64,000 nucleotides of DNA, from the NCBI GenBank assembly GCA_000004985.1, contig GG738852.1; one strand, given 5' to 3'. The position numbers and the translations under genes are program-made. Of this stretch, positions 28,992-41,724 are shown piece by piece (positions within the stretch are counted from its first letter, which is position 1; each line of letters begins with the position of its first letter). The notes beneath the pieces are model-generated. The model made no database searches. It had not been told where the DNA came from and saw nothing but the letters and a program-made list of their open reading frames with translations. This DNA is from Naegleria gruberi. Lineage: Eukaryota.

Positions 28992-30137
28992 ATGAATACA
29001 AAACTCACTTCACACTTGCCACATTTGATAAAACACAATTTTCCGAGTGTAAAGTATGCCTTTGCCTATGGATCGGCAGTCTTTAAACAAAAAGGGAATG
29101 AGGCACTTCATGAAGATTTTGATAAATTACACGACACTAAAATTATTGATGTGTCCAAGCCTGGTGAGGAGGAGAAGGCTGTAGTTCCGATTGTTGTGGA
29201 TAGGAAAAAGATGATGGTAGATATGGTGCTTGCTGTGAGTGATTCGTATGAATTTCACAAACAGAATTTATTATTAAATCCAGAGCATTATTCAGTGTTG
29301 ATGAGGATTTTGGGACCGAGAGTGATTACATTGCTACAGGAAAAGTTTGGAGCTAGAATTTATTATAATACAATGGTGGATTTGGATGATATTCATACTG
29401 GTGTTAGGTCACCATTTTTGTTTAAATATGGAGTTATAAAGGCACAACATTTAATTAAAGATTTGAATAATTGGGAAACTTTGTATGTGTCTGGAAGATT
29501 GCAAAAACCAACCTTTACAATTGATACAATTGATGAGAATGTTAGATCACTGCCAGGACATGTGGATACATGGCATCAAAATATCTGTCTAGCTCAGGAA
29601 CACAATTTGGAGCATGCCTTATTTACTGCATTGAAAATTATTTTATCTGAAAATCAATTGACAAATGGAACAGATCAAGAACAGGATATCAAAATTAATT
29701 TATTCGATTTATTTGTAATGATTGCCTCGCTATCCTATCAAGGAGATGTTAGAATGAAAATCAAGGGAGCAGAAAATAAGAATAAGGTGACTAATATTGT
29801 CACAACAAATTATGAACATTTTATAGAACTGTACGAACCAATTATGGAAAAGAGTAAATTATCGATCAAATTGGATCCAGATACTAAACAAAGTTATGTG
29901 AATATTACCAAATCAGATGTGGAGAAGGTTCGTGGTAGAGATCTACCTTTGAATGTTCAACAACAGCTCAGTAATCAATCAAAGATTACTGCTGATAGCA
30001 TCCAACAAGCTATTGCCAAGATTGTTTCCTCATCTAGTACATCACAAACTCTGAAGGGTTTAATTTCGGCTGGTCCTGTAAAGAGCTTTCACTATGTTTT
30101 GGAAAAATTGAAAAAAGGATTAAAGAGCCACAAGTAG
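28992..30137 (+). CDS. TAMM41: TAM41/MMP37-like mitochondrial phosphatidate cytidylyltransferase.
   Basis: N-terminal FAYGSAVFKQ matches the Mmp37 family YGSGV motif region. Length (~380 aa) fits the family. A-rich start. Confidence 0.5.
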   Translation: MNTKLTSHLPHLIKHNFPSVKYAFAYGSAVFKQKGNEALHEDFDKLHDTKIIDVSKPGEEEKAVVPIVVDRKKMMVDMVLAVSDSYEFHKQNLLLNPEHYSVLMRILGPRVITLLQEKFGARIYYNTMVDLDDIHTGVRSPFLFKYGVIKAQHLIKDLNNWETLYVSGRLQKPTFTIDTIDENVRSLPGHVDTWHQNICLAQEHNLEHALFTALKIILSENQLTNGTDQEQDIKINLFDLFVMIASLSYQGDVRMKIKGAENKNKVTNIVTTNYEHFIELYEPIMEKSKLSIKLDPDTKQSYVNITKSDVEKVRGRDLPLNVQQQLSNQSKITADSIQQAIAKIVSSSSTSQTLKGLISAGPVKSFHYVLEKLKKGLKSHK

Positions 30138-31888: not shown

Positions 31889-34306
31889 ATGAATTTAGCA
31901 GCTAATCTTGTGAGTACCTCCACTGCAGCAGTTGCTGCTGGCTCACAGAGACAATCACTGCCCTCCGTAGGAGCAAGTGTTGGTGCTGGTGATTCTGTGC
32001 AGCCACACCAGCAACAATATCATTTAAACACAACTGCAGGAAGTAGAAAATCAGAACATTTGGATGATACGGAGAGGGATGCCTTGTCTGCTGATGAAGA
32101 TGTCTTTCCAACATTTCGATCAGTAATTATGGGAATGGAGGAGGGGAATGATTTGGAGAGAGCTCCATCTTCCTCACAACATCATTATAGAGATGGATTT
32201 GGAAGGAATGATGATGAGGATCATGATTTCAAACTGGGTCACAGTTGGGAAACTAATAAGTGGTTGAGGTGAGTTTACTTGTTTGGAATTTTTAGTTTAA
32301 ATTGGTGAATTTACAGAATTGGAGTTGTTGTAACGTTTAGTTTGATGGCAATTCTTCTTTTTGCCTTTCTCATTGTAATAATTACATTAGCGAGTCGATC
32401 TGTGCCAACTAATGGAAATAATGTTATCAATAATTCAACATCTTGGGAACCACCAGTTACAGAATCTGGTATTGTAAATTTGATTAGAGCAACAAATGGT
32501 GCAACAGCTGCAGACAATGAAATTTGCTCAAATATTGGAGTGAAAATAATGAGAGATTATGGGGGAAATGCTGTGGATGCAGCAATTGCGACAAGTTTTT
32601 GTATTGGAATTATGAATCCTTTCAGTGCAGGAATAGGAGGTATGTTTCTCAATTCATTTTCGAAAGTTGAAATATTTTCACATCAATAATACTTGGATGA
32701 ATCAGGAGGAGGAATTATGGCAATTTCCAAACCAAGCACAAATGGAGAATCGATTGTGGAATATATTGACTATAGAGAAACAGCACCCTCTGGAGCATCT
32801 TGGGATATGTTTTCAAATATGCAACCAGTTGACGGAGCACCTCCTTCTCAGAGAGGTGGAAAAAGTATTGCTGTTCTATCAGAAGTGAAAGGTCTTTATA
32901 CTGCCTGGCAAAGGCATGGCTCTATTAGTTGGAATTTACTCGTTGAACCATCAATAGAGTTGGCTAGAAATGGAGTAAAGGCTAATGCAGTGATAGCTGG
33001 TCATTTACAAAAATACAAGAATTGGGTTGTCAGGGAATCATTTGGTTCAGGAATGAAACAAGTTTATGGAACAGCTGATGGAGATGTTAAAAAAGAGAAT
33101 GATTTATTGGTCTATCCTAAACTTGCCCAAACTTTGGAACAAATTGCTATTTATGGAGCTAATGCGTTGTATAGCTTGAATGGCTCTCTGATTCAAGATT
33201 TATTATCAGATTTACAACAAGCTGGAAGTATCGTTACAATGGACGATTTACTCAATTATCAAGTTAAAATTTATTCAACTCTTAACACCAACGAAGAGCA
33301 GCAACCTCTTTCAACCTACTTTATGGGCTACAAGGTATTTGGTCCACGACCAGTAATATCAGGCGGCTCTTGTATCATTTTCATGTTGAACATGTTGGAA
33401 AATTTTGTTGGAGAATTATACTCTTCTGCAATGAACAGTGAAAAGGGAGAATATGAGAGGGGAGAGGAATTTCATCTCTCACAGAAAAAGTATGCTCTCT
33501 TTGTGGAGGCACTCAAGTACGCATTTGCACATAGAGGTGACTTGGCAGATCCCGACTTTATTGACATTAAGGATGTTCTTGGAAAAATGACAAGCAAAGA
33601 TTATAGCTCAAAATTGAGAAATGAATTGGAAAAGGCTCTGAGCAATAATTTAACATTCTCTGATCCTCTTCATTACAAATATCAGAAAGATTCAGGATTT
33701 GTCAGAGATGATCACGGAACTTCTCATCTCAGTGTGTTGGATAAGAATGGAATGGCTGTCTCTGCTACCACAACAGTCAACCTGATTTTTGGAAGTTTTA
33801 TTATTGGTGAGAGGACTGGAATTATATTTAATGATCAAATGGATGACTTTTCCCTTCCAAACACCACCAATTATTTTGGACTGGCTCCTTCACCAAGTAA
33901 TTATATTGCAGCAGGTAAGAGGCCACTCAGCTCCATGTCTCCAATGATTATCCACAAGAATAATCAAATCTATCTTACCATTGGTGCCAGTGGTGGCTCC
34001 AGAATTATATCTTCAGTATTTCAAACTATTTGGAATCATATTGTTGGTGGTTTGGATATTGCCAAGGCGATTCAGTTCCCAAGAATTCACCATCAATGGA
34101 GCCCTGACTCACTCGCAATTGAGCAAGGTATTCCTGATGACCTAGTATCATTTTTGAAGAATTATGTTAATGGAGGATCCATTAGTAGAGTTCAAGGTAA
34201 TCCTGAATTCAGTGTTGGAATAGTTCAAGGAATAGTTAAAAAGGGAGCTAATGAAATTGAGGCGGCTTCAGATATTAGAAAAAAGAGTAAAGCTGCAGGG
34301 TATTAA
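31889..34306 (+). CDS. GGT: Gamma-glutamyltranspeptidase (type II membrane, three exons): 31889..32268, a 48-nt intron (GTGAGT...TTACAG), 32317..32639, a 66-nt intron (GTATGT...AATCAG), 32706..34306.
   Basis: Exon 1 encodes a cytoplasmic tail. Exon 2 starts with the TM anchor (IGVVVTFSLMAILLFAFLIVIITLA). The exon 2/3 junction gives GIGGGGGIMAI, matching GGT AGIGGGGFM. GGT small-subunit motifs TSHLSVLDKNGMAVSATTTVNLIFGS and GSR are present. Confidence 0.8.
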
Positions 34307-34377: not shown

Positions 34378-37300
34378 ATGAAAAGAAATGTAAATAAACC
34401 ACCACTCAAATCATCTCGAGGAAGTTCATTAGATATTGCCATAAGGAAGGGATTATATGGAATGTAGGTGTTGTTCTTTGTGATGAAAGATTAATTTGGA
34501 TAATTTTATCAAATAATTAACTGCACGGAACGAATAATACTATTTTATATTTAAATGGAAGAACTTTGGAACAATTACAAGAGTTTAATGATAATCATGA
34601 TGTTTATAAATTACAAAACGAATATGGAGGAGCCCACGGGTTGGCACAAGCTCTCGGATCAAATATTAAAGAGGGAATTAGTAATTATGAAGTTCAGGAA
34701 AGAGGATTTCATTTCGGAAAACATTTTAGTTTGCAACGAGTGAGTCCAACACGATATAATTCATGGTTCCGATTATTTATTATTACATTTAAGGATTCTT
34801 TCATGAAAACCTTCTTAATTTTGGCAATAATTTCAATCATTCTGGGAGTTATTCTGCCCACAGAACAAAAAGAGAGAAGAAAGGGTTGGATAGAGGGTGT
34901 CTCGCTTCTGATTGGGTGTCTCTTTGTTTGTGTGGCGAATAGTTTTATTGGCTGGCAAAAAAAGAGAAAGTGGAATGAGATTCACACCTTACAAGATGCT
35001 CAATACAGAGTAAAGGTAACACGTGATGGAAAAATTACATCCATTCTTATGGAAAATTTAGTGGTTGGTGACATACTTCATGTAGAACCTGGTGATTTTG
35101 TTACATGTTCTGGAATAGTTGTTGATTCACATAATTTAATTTGTGATGAAAGCTTTTTTACTGCCAACGATACTAACTCACTCAAAGATAAGAATTTGAA
35201 TCCTTTTATTGATCCAGAAACGTTTATTGTAGAAGGTTATGGTAGCATTCTTGTCACTTCAGTAGGAGTTAAACAAATCCTTTTGGATGCTTTACTGAAT
35301 TCTAAAGATGAGGAGTCTTCCTCTCCTTTGGAAACTCGTCTTTTCTCCATAGCTAATAATATTTGGAAAATAGCTATTGGCTTTTCATTGAGTGTTTTTG
35401 CACTCTTGATGGTTGGGTGGACCATTTATAAGATTGGACTCATACAAAACTATCAGGAGGAATGGATTGTTACTGATCTATTGACAGTTCTCAAAATGAT
35501 ATGTTTATGTTTTTCTGTACTCTTTGTTTGTACTCCGAATGGAATTTACAAGATAATTACCACTTCAATGGCCTACTCTTCACGTAAAACTATAAGAGAC
35601 AATATCCTTCTGAGTGTGAACCAGAATATGGATGTGAGTGAAAGGTTGGGATATACTTCACAAGTGATTATTGGAAAGTCGGCCCTTACACAAAAATCAA
35701 TGGAAGTTGTCAAAGCGATCATTGCAGGTGAAAATATTGAAATTGGCACAGGAGATGTTCAAATTGATGAAACTCTTTTACAAATTTTATCGAGTGCCTT
35801 ATCTGTGAATTCGAGGGCTGATATTAGAAATGATGATAATATGCAAATAGAGGAGAGTATTGGGGATTCTTTAGACTGTTCCCTATTGATTTTTCTTCAA
35901 CAAATTGGAGTAGATTATGCACCTATAAGAAACTATTATTTTGAGAATAACAAAATTGTAAAAATGTTTACAAAGAAAAATGGAACCATGACAACTATTG
36001 TGAGGAATAATGGAAATTATATTCTATTTACCAAAGGATGTTATGAATCCATTCTTGAAAATTCATCTGGAGAATTGTTGAAAGAAGGAGTTGTTGCTTC
36101 ATTCACTGATAACAGAAAAGAAGAGCTCCGAGAAACTATGAGCAAACACATTCAAGAAGGATATACAATAATTGCAATAGCTTACAGAGAAATTGAAGAC
36201 ACAAACATTCTCTTTGAGAATAATTTAACCATTGATGACGACTGCTACAGTAATTTAGTATTAATATCATTCCTGATTATTCTTAACCCATTAACCACAG
36301 GAATTAAGGAATCCATATCTCAATTGAGAGACGCTGGTATTTTTGTGAGGTTGGTTACTGGAGAAAGTGTTTCATCCGCAAAGAGACTTGCAACTGAATG
36401 TGGAATTATGACTGAAGATGGTACATGTCTAGAAGGCCCTTCGTTTTTCAATCTGAACGAAGATGAGCTCATTAAAACTCTTCCTAATCTGCAAGTGGTT
36501 GCCAGAGCAAATAATGCACACAAGTACCATCTCATTTCTGAATTACAGAAACAGGGGGAGTTTGTCACCATCCTCTCTTCATCTCACAAAGATGTCCCCT
36601 CCATAAGAAAAGCAGATATTGGAGCTGTTTGTGGAATTAAAGGATCACATTGGAGCAAATACTACGCCGATTTGTTTATTACAGATGATAGACTGAGTTC
36701 TCTTGTGAGAGCCATCGCTTGGGGAAGAGCTTTGTTTTACAATATTCAAAAGTATCTAGTTTTTCACATGACTATCAATATTGTAGTCATGACATTGACT
36801 GCAGTTACCTCTATAACTGCCTATCTTTTGAGCCCAGTTCAGTTTCCACCCTTCAATCCAGTCCAATTGTTATTTGTACATATTATCATGGACATTTTTG
36901 CAGCTCTTTCTCTGGCTTCTGATCCTCCTCATAAGGAAACTATGAAACAAGATCCAATCAAACCCAAATCAAGTATTGTAAGAAAGAATATGAAATTTCA
37001 CATTGTTGGTCAAATTCTCTATCAGTTAGTGGTATTGATGATTTTGCACTATAGTGGAATTTATATTTGTATCAACAATAAGGATGGCGACAAGTTGTGT
37101 CTGAGTGATCCTGGAACCTCCTTCAAATCATCCAAATCATCCCAAGTTGTGGAAACAATGGTATTCAATACTTTCATATTTTGTCAAATATTTAATGAGA
37201 TTAATTGTAGAAGAATTGATAATGGGATGAATCTATTGAAGAATATTCACCATTCATTATTATTTGTGGCAATCTTCATTCTTAATATTGCATTTCAAGT

Positions 37301-37523
37301 ATTCTTAGTTCAGTTGAGTTTGGCAAGTTTAGTGCCATTGACTTGGTACCAGTGGTTAGTTTGTGTTGCCATTGGTTTTATTTGCGTACCTTTTGGTTAT
37401 GTGTTACGATTTTTATCTTCAAGAATAATTACATCAAACAAATTGAAAAAGGGAATGAACAAGATATTTAAAAGAATGGTTCGTAGTGTGCCTAGTCGAA
37501 ATCATAACCTTAACATCACATGA
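34378..37523 (+). CDS. PMCA-type (P2B) P-type ATPase homolog lacking catalytic residues (pseudo-ATPase). Exons 34378..34463 and 34562..37523; 98-nt intron GTAGGT...GGAAG.
   Basis: The splice junction yields ...KGLYG|I|TLEQLQEF..NEYGGAHGLAQALGSNIKEGIS, matching the PMCA N-terminus (FGITLAELR..YGDVYGICTKL..EGLS). TM domains align with the PMCA family throughout. The 3' region (VTGESVSSAKRLATECGIM; IVRAIAWGRALFYNIQKYLVFHMTINIV; LLFVHIIMDIFAALSLASDPP) resembles PMCA. The phospho-Asp motif SDKTGTLT is replaced by IGKSALTQ. The actuator TGES is replaced by TAND. GDGTNDGPAL is replaced by SSHKDVPSI. Confidence 0.7.
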
Positions 37524-37593: not shown

Positions 37594-40500
37594 ATGAAAA
37601 ACAAAAACAAAAAAATGCCAAAAAACAAGGAAGTAGCAACTTCGGAGGAAAATGATCAACAAGATGAAGTCATGGCCGATTCTATAGAGGAGGAAACATC
37701 CAACACTAGTCGTAAATCGGATCAATCTAGAAATTCTGATGAATTGATGAAAATTAGTAAAGGCTTGATAGATTTGTCTAACAAGACAAATAATTCAGCA
37801 AATGAACAATTACTAAAATACATACAAGAAAATAAGTTGGTCGATTCTCTAAAAGAAATCAAGTCAATCATGACGCAATATTTACTCAAATCAAATTTTG
37901 ATCACTTATATCAATTTATGAAAGCCTATTTTCAAAGTTGTAGACCAAATGTCATATCAGAGAGTGTTTTCAATACTGATGTGAATAGCACTAGTTCCGA
38001 TAAGAGTGAATCTACTAATCAATTTAAACTCTCACGTGAGAGGGCCTTCATGCTGAAATTACTCACATGTTGGATGTTTGAAGGAAGATTAGAAGGAAGA
38101 GTGGCTAAGAATGGTTTAGGTATCATATTCGAAGAATTGGATTATTTACCAGATGCAATGCTTGTCTCATTAATTCAAGCAATTTATACATTGTTCAAAG
38201 ATGGTGGACAAGCATCAGATGTAGTTTCACCCCTCTTTGGAAATAATTCAAATTTTGATAGCATGGAAAATAATGCAGGACTAGTATTGGATATTTGGAC
38301 ACAGTGTATTTCTGCAGTAATGGCCAAGGATGAAATTGAAATCAATTCCAAAACAAAAAAGAAGAAGAAATCGGAAGAATACAAGACTGGTATTATCAAG
38401 GACATGTGTAAATGTGATTGGTCCCAAAAAGTATTGGCATTTGCCAATGCTTTCAAGGATATGCCACTCAATGACAATGAATTAGAACTAGTGGTAGACA
38501 AATTTTTCAAATACTTGAACAAGATGAACTTGAACGATTGTGCTCCACTCATTTACCAACTATTGATTCTTTCTTCAAGAGGAAAGAGACAGAAAATCTT
38601 ACTAGGAATTATTGCATATTTTGATAACTTGGAAAAAGAAAAGAGGCGAAACTCACTAACATCTACTGAAGATTCAGTTAACCAATTAGAAGGAACAGTT
38701 TTACACTTTATCGATTATGCGACCAAACAGAACCAAGAATTAGCCACAGAAATGTTAAAAATAATGAAGAATGAATCAAGTGGAGGACTAAATACCTTTA
38801 AAGCTTCCTTCTTACTAATCATTTCAGGTTTGATGAATTTTGAGGAAAAGGCGTTCAAGGTTTTAAAAACTTTTGTAGATGACGATTACAAAAATTCCAC
38901 CAAAATTCACCTCTATCTCTCTGAGGAAGAAGACCAGTTATTATCCTTCAGATACAAATCTAGTAACGTAATTTTAGATACAGTGAAAAAATGTGGAAGA
39001 GGAAGAGATTTCATGATCAAGTCTGTTGTTGACTTTGCATGCTATCTTTTAGATGCTAAAAAGGTTAAAGCCTCTAGTGATGACAATTTTGTTTTAACTA
39101 AGGTGGCAATGCACTCACATGACTTGGGATTGGAAATATTAGGCAAAATGTTCGAATTGAGTCAATTTGTTAGATCCGATATTCTCTCCAGAATTTTTAA
39201 TCGTGTGGTGACAAATTATGGAAACACTGAAAAATATATTGACCTCTTGAGAAATATATCAAAAAATCAAACCAATTGCCTTCTTGACCATATTTCCAAA
39301 CTCAAAGAAACCATTGAATACCTATCAACTATGCCTACAGATATATCAAATGCACTTCTCACTGCCGTGCAACCACTTTATAAGAATAGCCAAGAATTCC
39401 AAGATCAAGTAGTATTGGTTTTGCGTAAGTCAATGTATAGCAGAGAATTGGATTCAAGACTTGTTGCCTTGAACGGATTTTTACAAATTTTATTAGCTTC
39501 TGGAGAATTGGAAGAATCAAATGTTGGATCAAGTAGTGCTAGCAGCTCTTCCAGTAGTATTGCACAACACAGAGCAAGCACAATAGATTTGGAAATTATT
39601 GGATTTTTAAGAAGATGTCTCGGTCAGCAAATGATCGTTAGAAAGACGCTCTATGGTGGATTGTGTGACCTTGTCACAAAGAAGCCAGAATTGAGAAAGG
39701 AAATTACTCCAATCATGATTGACCATCTTAAAAAGTACATGTCCATGGAAGATGAAGACAAGCCAGAGGTATTTTTCGATAGTTGTATTGGTACCAAAAC
39801 AATGACAATTGCTGAACCTCTTCCTTCTCTCTTTTATTATTTAGTCCATGTAGCAGATGATGAAAGGGATAAGGACGCCTACAACATGTTGATTGGTATT
39901 ATGAATTATTTATTTTCCAAATCATTGAGTGAGCTCTCCATTGATAAACCTTTCGATGATACTAATGAAGGAAAAAAGAATAGACTTGTTGCCACCATAT
40001 ATGCTGGATGTATTGAGGCATTATTTGAGTTTACATTGTTAATTCTCTCCAAAGATGAGGACAATGGTAGTCAAGCAATGGAAGTATTGAATACTTTTTG
40101 GGCTAACTATTCCAAAGTAATAGAAAATCTTAATAAGAAACCAGCTTCAACAAGCAAGAAAAAGACATCCACCACTGAAAAGTTTGATCCAACTTCTTTC
40201 CTACCAGAATTATCCATTCAATTTTGCACATCAGCTATTAGCGCTGCTTCTGAATCTGTGAAAGATGTAGAAGTATCAGAGAATGCTATTGCTGATAGTA
40301 AATTCCATGCCTACCTACTCAAGTTAATTGCAAAGAAAACAAAGGCTGCCAAGAAGATAAATCAAAAACTTCCAGATGATGGCTTGCTAGGTATTGTAAA
40401 GGGTCTCTATATTTTCTTGGTAAGACTGACCAATAAGGGCTCATCAGCCTCTACTGACGACCCGAAAAAGAAGGATAAGACCACAACACAAACTTCAGAA

Positions 40501-41724
40501 GTGTTTGAAGAATTAATACGTATGAAAACTCAAAATAGTTCTCCAGCTGAAATAATCGATTTTTATGAGGGCTTTATTCGATTGTCTAAAAGTCAAACCT
40601 CCTCTAACAATGATAGTAGAATTAGTGACATTATGCAAACTCTTCAGAAAAATATTAGTAGTATTCTCAAACAAAAATCATTTGAGACAGCCACTTCATT
40701 TGTTAGAATTCTCACCAGCTTGGTTCATTTTATTGAGGGCAAGTGTGAAATTTTAGAAAATTCTGGACACTACTCTTGGATAATTGATATTTGTAAAGGA
40801 AATGAGTTTGGTCATAATGATTTAGGCCATGCTCTTATCAATCACCTTGTAACATTAGCTTGTATTTTTATGGATGTTCCAAAGCTCCAAGAACTTGCCT
40901 CAGACGTGTTGGGTAAAGTTGGCCATATTGAAGATGCTGGTGAAAGAACTGTTACCAACATGTTAGCCATCAATTGTCCATCAGAAACTGCAGATGTATT
41001 AATTTCTAGAATTGGATTAATCTTAGATGATCTGGATTGGAAATATCAACGATTAGAAACACTCAAGGACACATTAAGTGATAATTATGAGGACACAAAG
41101 AAGAATATTTTCCATCAAACTACTCTCTTTATTGATACTTTGGAGCATTTAATTTGTGCCAAATTGGAAATGGAAATATCTGAAAAGCTCTTTTCTCCAC
41201 TTATCAAATTCTATACAATGTTAGCTAAGTTTACAGATACCTATCTTTCCCTTCCTAAAGATTCTGGAATTGAGTTATGTGAAGAATATTGTGAATTGGT
41301 GGATAGATCTGGTGATTTTACCACCACTTGTTACTCATTCATCAATTATCATAATGAGGAAGAAAAGTCCACCTCAATGAAAATTGTTAGAGAGGCAAGA
41401 AATATTCCAGAACTCATCTTTAGAATGGAAACCTCAGAGCAAAAACTCATTCTCCTCTCCAAACATATCAAACAAAACTTGCTCAAGAACTATAAGAGAT
41501 CCCAAGTTAGAGCTTTTACCATTGACAATCAAAAGGTTATGGAAGCAGCCGAAGAAAAGAAGAAGCGTAAAAAGAAAGATGATGAAGAGGAAGAGCAAAT
41601 TAAGGAAGAATCAGAGAATGAACAAGAGGAAGAAGAAAAGAGCAGTAAAAAGAAAAAGAAAGCTTCCAAAAAGAGAAAATCACCAACCAGTGAAAAGTCA
41701 ACCACAAAGAAAAAGAAGAAATAA
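37594..41724 (+). CDS. FANCI: FANCI (Fanconi anemia group I protein) ortholog.
   Basis: FKDMPLNDNELELVVDKFFKYLNKMNLNDCAPLIYQLLILSSRGKRQKILLGIIAYF aligns closely with human FANCI [57 protein letters not shown]. The C-terminal CYSFINY...IPELIFRMETSEQKLILLSKH matches FANCI CYSFISY...[21 protein letters not shown]. An acidic/basic KKKRKK-type tail is present. The alternative in-frame ATG at 37615 has the better A-rich context. Confidence 0.75.
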   Translation: MKNKNKKMPKNKEVATSEENDQQDEVMADSIEEETSNTSRKSDQSRNSDELMKISKGLIDLSNKTNNSANEQLLKYIQENKLVDSLKEIKSIMTQYLLKSNFDHLYQFMKAYFQSCRPNVISESVFNTDVNSTSSDKSESTNQFKLSRERAFMLKLLTCWMFEGRLEGRVAKNGLGIIFEELDYLPDAMLVSLIQAIYTLFKDGGQASDVVSPLFGNNSNFDSMENNAGLVLDIWTQCISAVMAKDEIEINSKTKKKKKSEEYKTGIIKDMCKCDWSQKVLAFANAFKDMPLNDNELELVVDKFFKYLNKMNLNDCAPLIYQLLILSSRGKRQKILLGIIAYFDNLEKEKRRNSLTSTEDSVNQLEGTVLHFIDYATKQNQELATEMLKIMKNESSGGLNTFKASFLLIISGLMNFEEKAFKVLKTFVDDDYKNSTKIHLYLSEEEDQLLSFRYKSSNVILDTVKKCGRGRDFMIKSVVDFACYLLDAKKVKASSDDNFVLTKVAMHSHDLGLEILGKMFELSQFVRSDILSRIFNRVVTNYGNTEKYIDLLRNISKNQTNCLLDHISKLKETIEYLSTMPTDISNALLTAVQPLYKNSQEFQDQVVLVLRKSMYSRELDSRLVALNGFLQILLASGELEESNVGSSSASSSSSSIAQHRASTIDLEIIGFLRRCLGQQMIVRKTLYGGLCDLVTKKPELRKEITPIMIDHLKKYMSMEDEDKPEVFFDSCIGTKTMTIAEPLPSLFYYLVHVADDERDKDAYNMLIGIMNYLFSKSLSELSIDKPFDDTNEGKKNRLVATIYAGCIEALFEFTLLILSKDEDNGSQAMEVLNTFWANYSKVIENLNKKPASTSKKKTSTTEKFDPTSFLPELSIQFCTSAISAASESVKDVEVSENAIADSKFHAYLLKLIAKKTKAAKKINQKLPDDGLLGIVKGLYIFLVRLTNKGSSASTDDPKKKDKTTTQTSEVFEELIRMKTQNSSPAEIIDFYEGFIRLSKSQTSSNNDSRISDIMQTLQKNISSILKQKSFETATSFVRILTSLVHFIEGKCEILENSGHYSWIIDICKGNEFGHNDLGHALINHLVTLACIFMDVPKLQELASDVLGKVGHIEDAGERTVTNMLAINCPSETADVLISRIGLILDDLDWKYQRLETLKDTLSDNYEDTKKNIFHQTTLFIDTLEHLICAKLEMEISEKLFSPLIKFYTMLAKFTDTYLSLPKDSGIELCEEYCELVDRSGDFTTTCYSFINYHNEEEKSTSMKIVREARNIPELIFRMETSEQKLILLSKHIKQNLLKNYKRSQVRAFTIDNQKVMEAAEEKKKRKKKDDEEEEQIKEESENEQEEEEKSSKKKKKASKKRKSPTSEKSTTKKKKK

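Follow-up and report, generated by a model that had tools for sequence, protein, structure and literature searches.

A plasma-membrane Ca2+-ATPase descendant in Naegleria that has probably lost its catalytic cycle and been conserved as a pseudo-pump

P-type ATPases are among the best-understood membrane enzymes, and members of the superfamily that lack catalysis are barely known. A gene at positions 34378 to 37523 (plus strand) of a 64,000-nucleotide stretch of Naegleria gruberi DNA (contig GG738852.1, assembly GCA_000004985.1; hereafter the window, to which all coordinates refer) raises the question of whether such members exist. It encodes a protein that resembles plasma-membrane Ca2+-ATPases (PMCAs, type P2B) and in which the motifs that define the catalytic cycle read differently. 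Is this protein still a pump, is it the remnant of one, or has it been kept for some other use? The original prediction for this locus, made from the sequence alone, favored the last of these. We put a probability of roughly 0.75 on the reading that the protein is a pseudo-pump, that is, a descendant of a P2B Ca2+-ATPase that has lost the catalytic cycle and has been kept as a full-length folded membrane protein.

The integrity that had been claimed for the gene was borne out. An open reading frame (ORF) of 985 codons lies at 34566..37523 on the plus strand, a length with a chance probability of ~1e-34 at the base composition of the window, and joining 34378..34463 to 34562..37523 gives a 3048-nt coding sequence that specifies 1015 amino acids with zero internal stops. 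The product is collinear with PMCAs over its whole length, as had also been proposed. Three Pfam domains score above their cutoffs (Cation_ATPase_C, 2e-36; E1-E2_ATPase, 1.6e-15; Cation_ATPase, 4e-10), Cation_ATPase_N lies at its cutoff, and Hydrolase, the HAD domain that holds the catalytic core, falls under it. The closest solved structures are Arabidopsis ACA8 (8qmp, 2e-109) and human and mouse PMCA1/2 (1e-101), with bacterial Ca2+-ATPases, SPCA, Na,K-ATPase, and SERCA all well behind. The PMCA-type NCBIfam model TIGR01517 is the best family by far (501 bits, with the second-best at 193 bits). Its curated cutoff of 507.05 bits divides the N. gruberi protein (501.2) and an orthologue from an environmental contig (479.2), which fall below it, from the orthologues of N. 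lovaniensis (535.6) and N. fowleri (538.6), which lie above it; an active PMCA of Amoeba reaches 994 bits, about twice the N. gruberi score. The N. gruberi protein also scores 77.5 on TIGR01494, against a cutoff of 62.3. An AlphaFold2 model built from a 50-sequence alignment (predicted local distance difference test (pLDDT) 84, predicted TM-score 0.82) has ten transmembrane (TM) helices together with A, P, and N domains, and Foldseek matches it to the E1 states of mouse PMCA2–neuroplastin with TM-scores of 0.81–0.85 (E = 2e-59). The protein belongs to the P-type ATPase superfamily by fold and by homology. We conclude that it descends from P2B pumps and that it is not a TIGR01517 equivalog.

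We read the catalytic and ion-site motifs from alignments to ACA8 and PMCA1, to assorted PMCAs, and to 128 active PMCA representatives, and we refer to residue equivalents (E309, D351, K492, K515, R560, K684, D703, N706, D707, N796, and D800) by their SERCA1a numbers; all of the motifs lie on the plus strand. By alignment and translation, the TGES loop of the A domain reads TAND (35160..35171). The phosphorylation motif DKTGT, which holds D351, aligns as GKS-AL, with no nucleophile Asp and one residue deleted (35673..35687), and the Mg2+-binding loop GDGTNDAP (D703, N706, D707) reads SSSHKDVP (36576..36599). Also in the P domain, DPxR reads NPLT (36285..36296) and TGD reads TGE (36357..36365). 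The K492 and R560 equivalents are Gly and Thr. The ion site is altered as well: PEGLP of M4 (E309) reads PNGIY (35535..35549), M5 has FH where active PMCAs have FQ (36762..36767), and M6 has HIIMD in place of their NLIMD (N796, D800; 36879..36893), with the Asp kept. Other canonical residues persist, namely the Lys (K515) of the N-domain KGxxE motif, which reads KGCYE (36033..36047), the T of TGD, the K684 and D707 equivalents, the DD hinge, and WGR. The original readings of TGES as TAND and of DKTGT as GKSAL are thus confirmed, and so is the replacement of the Mg2+ loop, which had been read one residue out of register as SSHKDVPS; the further claim that every catalytic signature is replaced holds for the main motifs and is slightly overstated in view of the residues just listed.

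Are these substitutions peculiar to one genome? In a homology search, three further proteins scored far above all others: C9374_009514 of N. lovaniensis (57% identical to the N. gruberi protein), a Logan-assembly protein that is FDP41_012712 of N. fowleri, identical to it apart from an alternative start codon, and an environmental orthologue on a JGI metagenome contig (52% identical to the N. gruberi protein). In the order N. gruberi, N. lovaniensis, N. fowleri, and environmental, the TGES position reads TAND, VGQQ, FGQQ, and YSET, differing by lineage. The DKTGT position reads GKS-AL, DKS-VL, DKS-VL, and D-TDAL, with a one-residue deletion in all four, and the GDGxNDxP position reads SSSHKDVP, ASSYKDLT, ASSYKDLT, and ASRPGDLS, with the first Asp of the Mg2+ loop replaced by Ser and the last Asp retained in every member. 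At the PEGLP position (PNGIY, PEGIY, PEGIY, and PKGIY), the replacement of L by I and of the final P by Y is fixed throughout. The same holds for the change of the M6 Asn to His, for the retention of the M6 Asp, and for a His in M5 where 99% of the 128 active PMCAs have Gln. Each of the four proteins lacks the D703, N706, K492, and R560 equivalents, the G and the second T of DKTGT, and TGES. Because the nucleophile of N. gruberi and, across the clade, D703, the K492 and R560 equivalents, and TGES are gone, the phosphoenzyme (E1P/E2P) cycle cannot run, and the protein is, as judged from its residues, not a primary active pump. The phospho-Asp itself is gone in N. gruberi alone; the other three proteins keep an Asp in a degenerate and shortened motif. 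Since the motifs of the orthologues are degenerate at the same places, the loss of the pump cycle appears to be older than the split between N. gruberi and the N. fowleri/N. lovaniensis lineage, and the loss of the nucleophile Asp would be a later step specific to N. gruberi. The proposal of a dead pump therefore extends to the whole clade as far as the cycle is concerned, and to N. gruberi only for the missing nucleophile.

Whether these proteins are maintained can be read from the ratio of nonsynonymous to synonymous substitution (dN/dS, or omega). We compared N. lovaniensis with N. fowleri, whose proteins are 90% identical at a dS of 0.6–0.8 (unsaturated), and left out pairs with N. gruberi, for which dS is saturated (1.9–2.3 by NG86, above 10 by maximum likelihood). 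dN/dS was 0.06–0.08 by four methods. Broken down by domain, omega was lowest in TM5–6 (0.008) and highest in TM3–4 (0.116), with TM1–2, TM7, and TM8–10 at 0.04–0.06, the A domain at 0.064, the P domain at 0.065–0.086, and the N domain at 0.108. A decaying pseudogene, the outcome that the original prediction had said a ratio near 1 would imply, is ruled out for the family by values far below 1 in every domain; the N. gruberi gene itself shows no disabling mutation in its 1015 codons. Catalytic residues are gone and purifying selection acts across species, the combination that defines a pseudoenzyme. A non-catalytic role is what we infer from sequence and selection together.

To see where the ancestral constraint persists, we took as canonical the 107 columns of the alignment at which conservation among the 128 active PMCAs reaches 95% or more. 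Each clade protein keeps 57–64 of these; all four share 46, some have lost another 28, and none retains the remaining 33. The P domain, with 57 canonical columns, keeps 19 in all four, has a new residue fixed at 5, has lost 13 to variable residues, and has lost 20 in some members. The membrane domain, with 29, keeps 16 in all four, has a new residue fixed at 9, has lost only 1 to variable residues, and has lost 3 in some members. The P-domain pattern is the one expected of relaxed catalytic positions, and the membrane-domain pattern the one expected of a re-specified site that is still constrained. In PEGLP, the membrane residues newly fixed across the clade include I for L and Y for P; in M5 they include Y for F, H for Q, and V for A; and in M6, H for N. 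Two more features are conserved and specific to the clade. In the exoplasmic L7/8 loop, a clade-specific segment, CINNKDGDKLC, carries two invariant Cys (37068..37100, plus strand) and is modeled as a beta hairpin at a pLDDT of ~60–70. Right after TM10, a basic amphipathic C-terminal helix is predicted (LSSRIITSNKLKKGMNKIFKRMVRSV; 37413..37490, plus strand), with the consensus NK[FL]K[KR]GMN[KR]I conserved in the clade. In a MAFFT alignment, this helix falls opposite the first half of a W-x-RG-x-x-RI-x-x-QI tail motif in the PMCAs of Albugo, Dictyostelium, and Amoeba, with no second anchor. It also resembles the start of the calmodulin-binding domain of animal PMCAs, a likeness that we take as a lead only.

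A membrane domain that is constrained in this way could also conduct passively, as a channel or uniporter that lets H+, Ca2+, or a metal through, instead of acting by binding or regulation. TM5–6 is the most constrained region of the protein, the ion pocket has a fixed new His in M5, a His in M6, and the retained Asp, and P-type pumps can become channels, as in the palytoxin-bound Na,K-ATPase structure 9vj0, which is among the fold matches. Against this, the predicted model resembles closed E1 states, the acidic residue of M4 is unconserved, and a simple pore would not need the whole cytosolic headpiece to be conserved. We regard a passive pathway as unlikely, yet as a live alternative that fares better than the others.

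Could the proteins instead remain an energy-coupled transporter or a phosphatase through non-canonical chemistry? Three orthologues keep an Asp at motif I (in the context D-K-S), together with the T of TGD and the K684 and D707 equivalents, and purifying selection acts on each of the A, P, and N domains (omega 0.06–0.11). In SERCA and Na,K-ATPase, mutagenesis has found D351, D703, D707, and E183 of TGES each to be indispensable for formation or hydrolysis of the phosphoenzyme, and these residues are partly gone here: the losses described above as common to all four proteins include D703 and TGES, and the N. gruberi nucleophile is Gly. The catalytic residues also differ by lineage, with TGD reading TGE or TSD and the R560 equivalent reading T, Y, I, and K in the four proteins, which is expected of relaxed sites and not of a new active site. 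A surviving chemistry of this kind seems to us highly improbable.

Equally improbable, in our estimate, is that the N. gruberi copy alone is a recently inactivated unitary pseudogene while the family is functional in other Naegleria. The D-to-G change at the phosphorylation site and the E-to-N change in M4 are found in N. gruberi only, which also has the somewhat longer branch, with 121 amino-acid changes of its own against 92 in N. lovaniensis (~1.3-fold, with the environmental sequence as third taxon); its TIGR01517 score lies just under the cutoff that the N. lovaniensis and N. fowleri proteins clear, and exact-sequence look-ups found no N. gruberi transcript. Yet the 1015 codons carry no stop or frameshift at 34% GC. 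In a simulation of neutral substitution that ignored indels, the N. gruberi ORF had a 15% chance of remaining stop-free at 1% divergence and a 2.4% chance (P = 0.024) at 2%, and the unbroken ORF is incompatible with more than ~1–2% neutral divergence. Its splice sites are intact, as is exon 1, and both are conserved. The N. gruberi copy also follows the constraint profile of the family, being 83% identical to the N. lovaniensis protein in TM5–6 and 39–41% identical in the N-terminus and the L7/8 loop. Finally, on our reading the common ancestor was already non-catalytic, and so the D-to-G change need not have altered the retained function.

An error of sequencing, assembly, or gene modeling as the source of the degenerate motifs, as might be feared of a single N. 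gruberi assembly whose NCBI model is partial and unlike the ORF, can be dismissed, because three independent genomes or contigs show substitutions of the same classes, with TGES, GDGxND, and the register of DKTGT likewise not intact, and because the motifs lie within one continuous exon and so do not depend on the gene model.

The orthologues also bear on the gene model itself. Exon 1 (34378..34463, plus strand) runs 86 nt from the ATG to a phase-2 splice donor and encodes MKRNVNKPPLKSSRGSSLDIAIRKGLYG plus 2 nt; the putative intron (34464..34561, plus strand) is 98 nt long and of the GT..AG type (GTAGGT...AAG), a call based on the sequence and on the orthologue introns; and exon 2 (34562..37523, plus strand) carries the rest of the 1015-aa PMCA-like protein through the stop codon. 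The junction reads ...KGLYG-I-TLEQLQEF. All three orthologues conserve the exon 1 peptide SLD[IL]A[IV].KG.YG, tblastx matches positions 34425–34473 to the N. lovaniensis (L001) and N. fowleri (L002) loci, and the position and phase of the intron are common to all four genes (94 nt in N. lovaniensis, 95 nt in N. fowleri, and 39 nt in the environmental orthologue). Because the orthologues share the first exon and the intron position and phase, the N. gruberi splice is validated, and the intron originally proposed at this place is upheld. The environmental intron (L003 490–530) is short, at just 39 nt against 94–98 nt in the three Naegleria species. The best database match of the ORF is XP_002680790.1/EFC48046.1, "predicted protein, partial [Naegleria gruberi]", which is identical over the aligned parts and marks the window as nuclear DNA of N. 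gruberi. This NCBI model, flagged as partial, lacks exon 1 and skips 17 residues (CLSDPGTSFKSSKSSQV) of the continuous ORF at about 37098–37148. Since a Cys, a Leu, and a Pro within the skipped segment are conserved in the orthologues, the omission is probably a spurious intron call.

How far does the clade extend? In an exhaustive profile hidden Markov model search of 1.84 billion representative proteins, the whole clade formed a single 50%-identity cluster at 1948 bits, and the next match scored 555 bits. DKTGT was present in 145 of the 148 other matches listed in that search, and the ten best of the remaining matches, when looked up, were PMCAs of unrelated eukaryotes, for example Amoeba, Anaeramoeba, Dictyostelium, and Albugo. 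A metagenome scan with the clade alignment gave two distant relatives (23–28% identity) and no new clade member among the matches listed. This makes for a narrow, long-branched family. A tblastx comparison of the 64-kb N. gruberi window with the orthologue loci and 10 kb on either side gave no match beyond the ATPase-like gene itself; with no microsynteny found, the case for orthology is built on sequence similarity, the common intron, and derived residues that the proteins share. The flanks of the N. lovaniensis and N. fowleri loci correspond to each other, with an Ank protein upstream and F-box and WD40 genes downstream, and the environmental contig has an F-box-like gene just downstream of the orthologue.

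Degenerate PMCA-like sequences, with a PMCA backbone in which at least one of TGES, DKTGT, and GDGxND is altered, do occur sporadically elsewhere: the Acrasis kona protein "PAT1" (KAL0488204.1, P0175; TGTD and GDDARD), the ENA metagenome protein P0258 (GKSGT and TDSTRD), P0100, and models from Brassica (P0039/P0041; HKTGI, MGTN, and GKGIRD), Gossypium (P0033), and Cornus (P0037). Their identity to the Naegleria clade is only 25–29%, they stand nearer to active PMCAs, and in no case do they combine PxGIY with the M5 and M6 His residues. Because they are closer to active PMCAs and carry other substitutions, they appear to be independent events. The plant sequences are ACA13-like models and may be pseudogenes or model errors. 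We considered the Acrasis protein and P0258 as distant clade members and rejected both on the grounds of their closeness to active PMCAs and their lack of the clade-fixed TM substitutions. Acrasis, too, is a heterolobosean, but its protein lies nearer the active PMCAs than it does the Naegleria clade.

Pseudoenzymes, such as pseudokinases, pseudophosphatases, and iRhoms, are enzyme homologues without catalytic residues, and the Naegleria protein is like them in lacking those residues while keeping a conserved fold under purifying selection. With P2B pumps (animal PMCA1–4, plant ACAs such as ACA8, and Dictyostelium PAT1) it shares collinearity over the full length, the fold, ten TM helices, the M6 Asp, WGR, the DD hinge, the K of KGxxE, and a basic tail helix that aligns with the start of protist PMCA tails. 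It differs from them in having no phospho-Asp (in N. gruberi), TGES, GDGxND, or K492 and R560 equivalents, and in having PxGIY, the M6 His, and the M5 His instead. The nearest published precedent for a P-type scaffold without the canonical cycle is human TMEM94 (ERMA), whose activity is disputed: one structural study found no TGES, nucleotide binding, phosphorylation, or ATPase activity (PMC12134183), and others still claim it as an ATPase (PMC13322241). Like the Naegleria protein, TMEM94 is a conserved 10-TM protein with P-type-like cytosolic domains and no TGES. It belongs, however, to a very distant, animal-wide family, whereas the Naegleria protein is an obvious recent offshoot of PMCAs that in N. 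gruberi lacks the Asp; between the two, we saw no sequence relationship closer than the superfamily. In Apicomplexa and ciliates, P4-ATPase-like domains are fused to guanylyl cyclases and used in signaling (PMC7858053, PMC6592433), and GC-alpha of P. falciparum retains the Asp and needs it (PMC7858053). Those modules likewise take a P-type architecture beyond simple transport, but they are of P4 type and fused, whereas the Naegleria protein is of P2B type and stand-alone and has lost its catalytic residues; they too are linked to the clade only at the level of the superfamily. Our literature searches found no paper on a pseudo-P2B-ATPase family or on these accessions, and the terms searched in the Palmgren 2023 review led to no mention of pseudo-pumps. 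The suggestion that dead P2B ATPases are not a described class is sustained only by this negative outcome of the literature searches, with the reservation that degenerate PMCA-like sequences are found outside the clade.

We propose the following account of the pseudo-pump. The catalytic cycle would have been lost from a P2B pump before N. gruberi split from the N. fowleri/N. lovaniensis lineage, and selection would have retained a full-length membrane protein of PMCA fold since then, with the ion pocket re-specified around P-x-G-I-Y in M4, a new His in M5, and H-x-x-M-D in M6. Function would then reside in the membrane domain and in ligand or protein–protein interactions of the scaffold: the membrane pocket may bind a ligand without transporting it, and the A/P/N headpiece may act as a folded interaction platform. 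The result would be a non-pumping membrane protein for binding, sensing, or regulation, most plausibly in Ca2+/H+ or metal homeostasis and possibly coupled to calmodulin. Any particular downstream role is tentative. More speculative than the loss of the cycle, too, is the idea that this is the first conserved pseudo-PMCA family, an ATP-independent receptor or sensor or a gated passive pathway whose His/His/Asp pocket binds H+, a metal, or Ca2+ in a new way and whose calmodulin-like tail links it to Ca2+ signaling in amoeboflagellates, including N. fowleri; we offer it as a possibility that we ourselves rather doubt.

Several observations weigh against the pseudo-pump reading or against its details. 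The E309 equivalent of M4 varies as N/E/E/K across the four proteins, and so no one conserved ligand is bound in the canonical manner by the membrane pocket; a residue this variable speaks against a canonical coordination of Ca2+. In three of the four proteins an Asp is still found where phosphorylation would occur, as are the equivalents of K684 and D707, and residual non-canonical chemistry in these three species is conceivable, if improbable. Selection on the N. gruberi branch rests on ORF integrity and branch length, since dS is saturated. Exact-sequence database look-ups of the N. gruberi product returned no other record. An active Naegleria PMCA paralogue was identified neither in the literature nor among the matches listed in a word-filtered homology search seeded with the Acrasis protein, which is not evidence of its absence. 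Finally, no result tells a sensor, a regulator, a scaffold, and a passive pathway apart, and the role suggested for every member derives from sequence comparison and a predicted model.

The window around the gene has ~34% GC and densely packed long ORFs, with spacers of ~70 nt flanking the pseudo-pump gene. Upstream on the plus strand lie a gamma-glutamyltranspeptidase (GGT) gene (32693..34306; Pfam, 4e-122) and a gene for the Tam41/Mmp37 mitochondrial phosphatidate cytidylyltransferase (28992..30137). Because the first start found for the GGT ORF is a TTG, one or more true 5' exons of that gene probably lie further upstream. Downstream, starting 70 nt past the pseudo-pump gene, a 1376-aa ORF (37594..41724, plus strand) contains five FANCI Pfam domains (S1, HD1, S2, HD2, and S4) and is therefore a Naegleria homologue of Fanconi anaemia group I (FANCI).

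The finding is best described as a conserved pseudoenzyme derived from a P2B pump; pseudoenzymes are common, and this clade is narrow. That a PMCA derivative is under strong selection means that the pump scaffold has a selectable use other than pumping, and the clade provides a natural experiment on which parts of a pump matter without the phosphorylation cycle. For Naegleria, the consequence is practical as well. Automatic annotation labels such proteins as cation-transporting or calcium ATPases, and inventories of Ca2+ transport in Naegleria would overcount pumps. Because it fails the defining functional features of P2B pumps, as far as these can be judged from its residues, the Naegleria protein should not be classed as a calcium-transporting ATPase. 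The brain-eating N. fowleri carries the protein too, and lineage-specific membrane proteins in this species are of interest as markers or targets.

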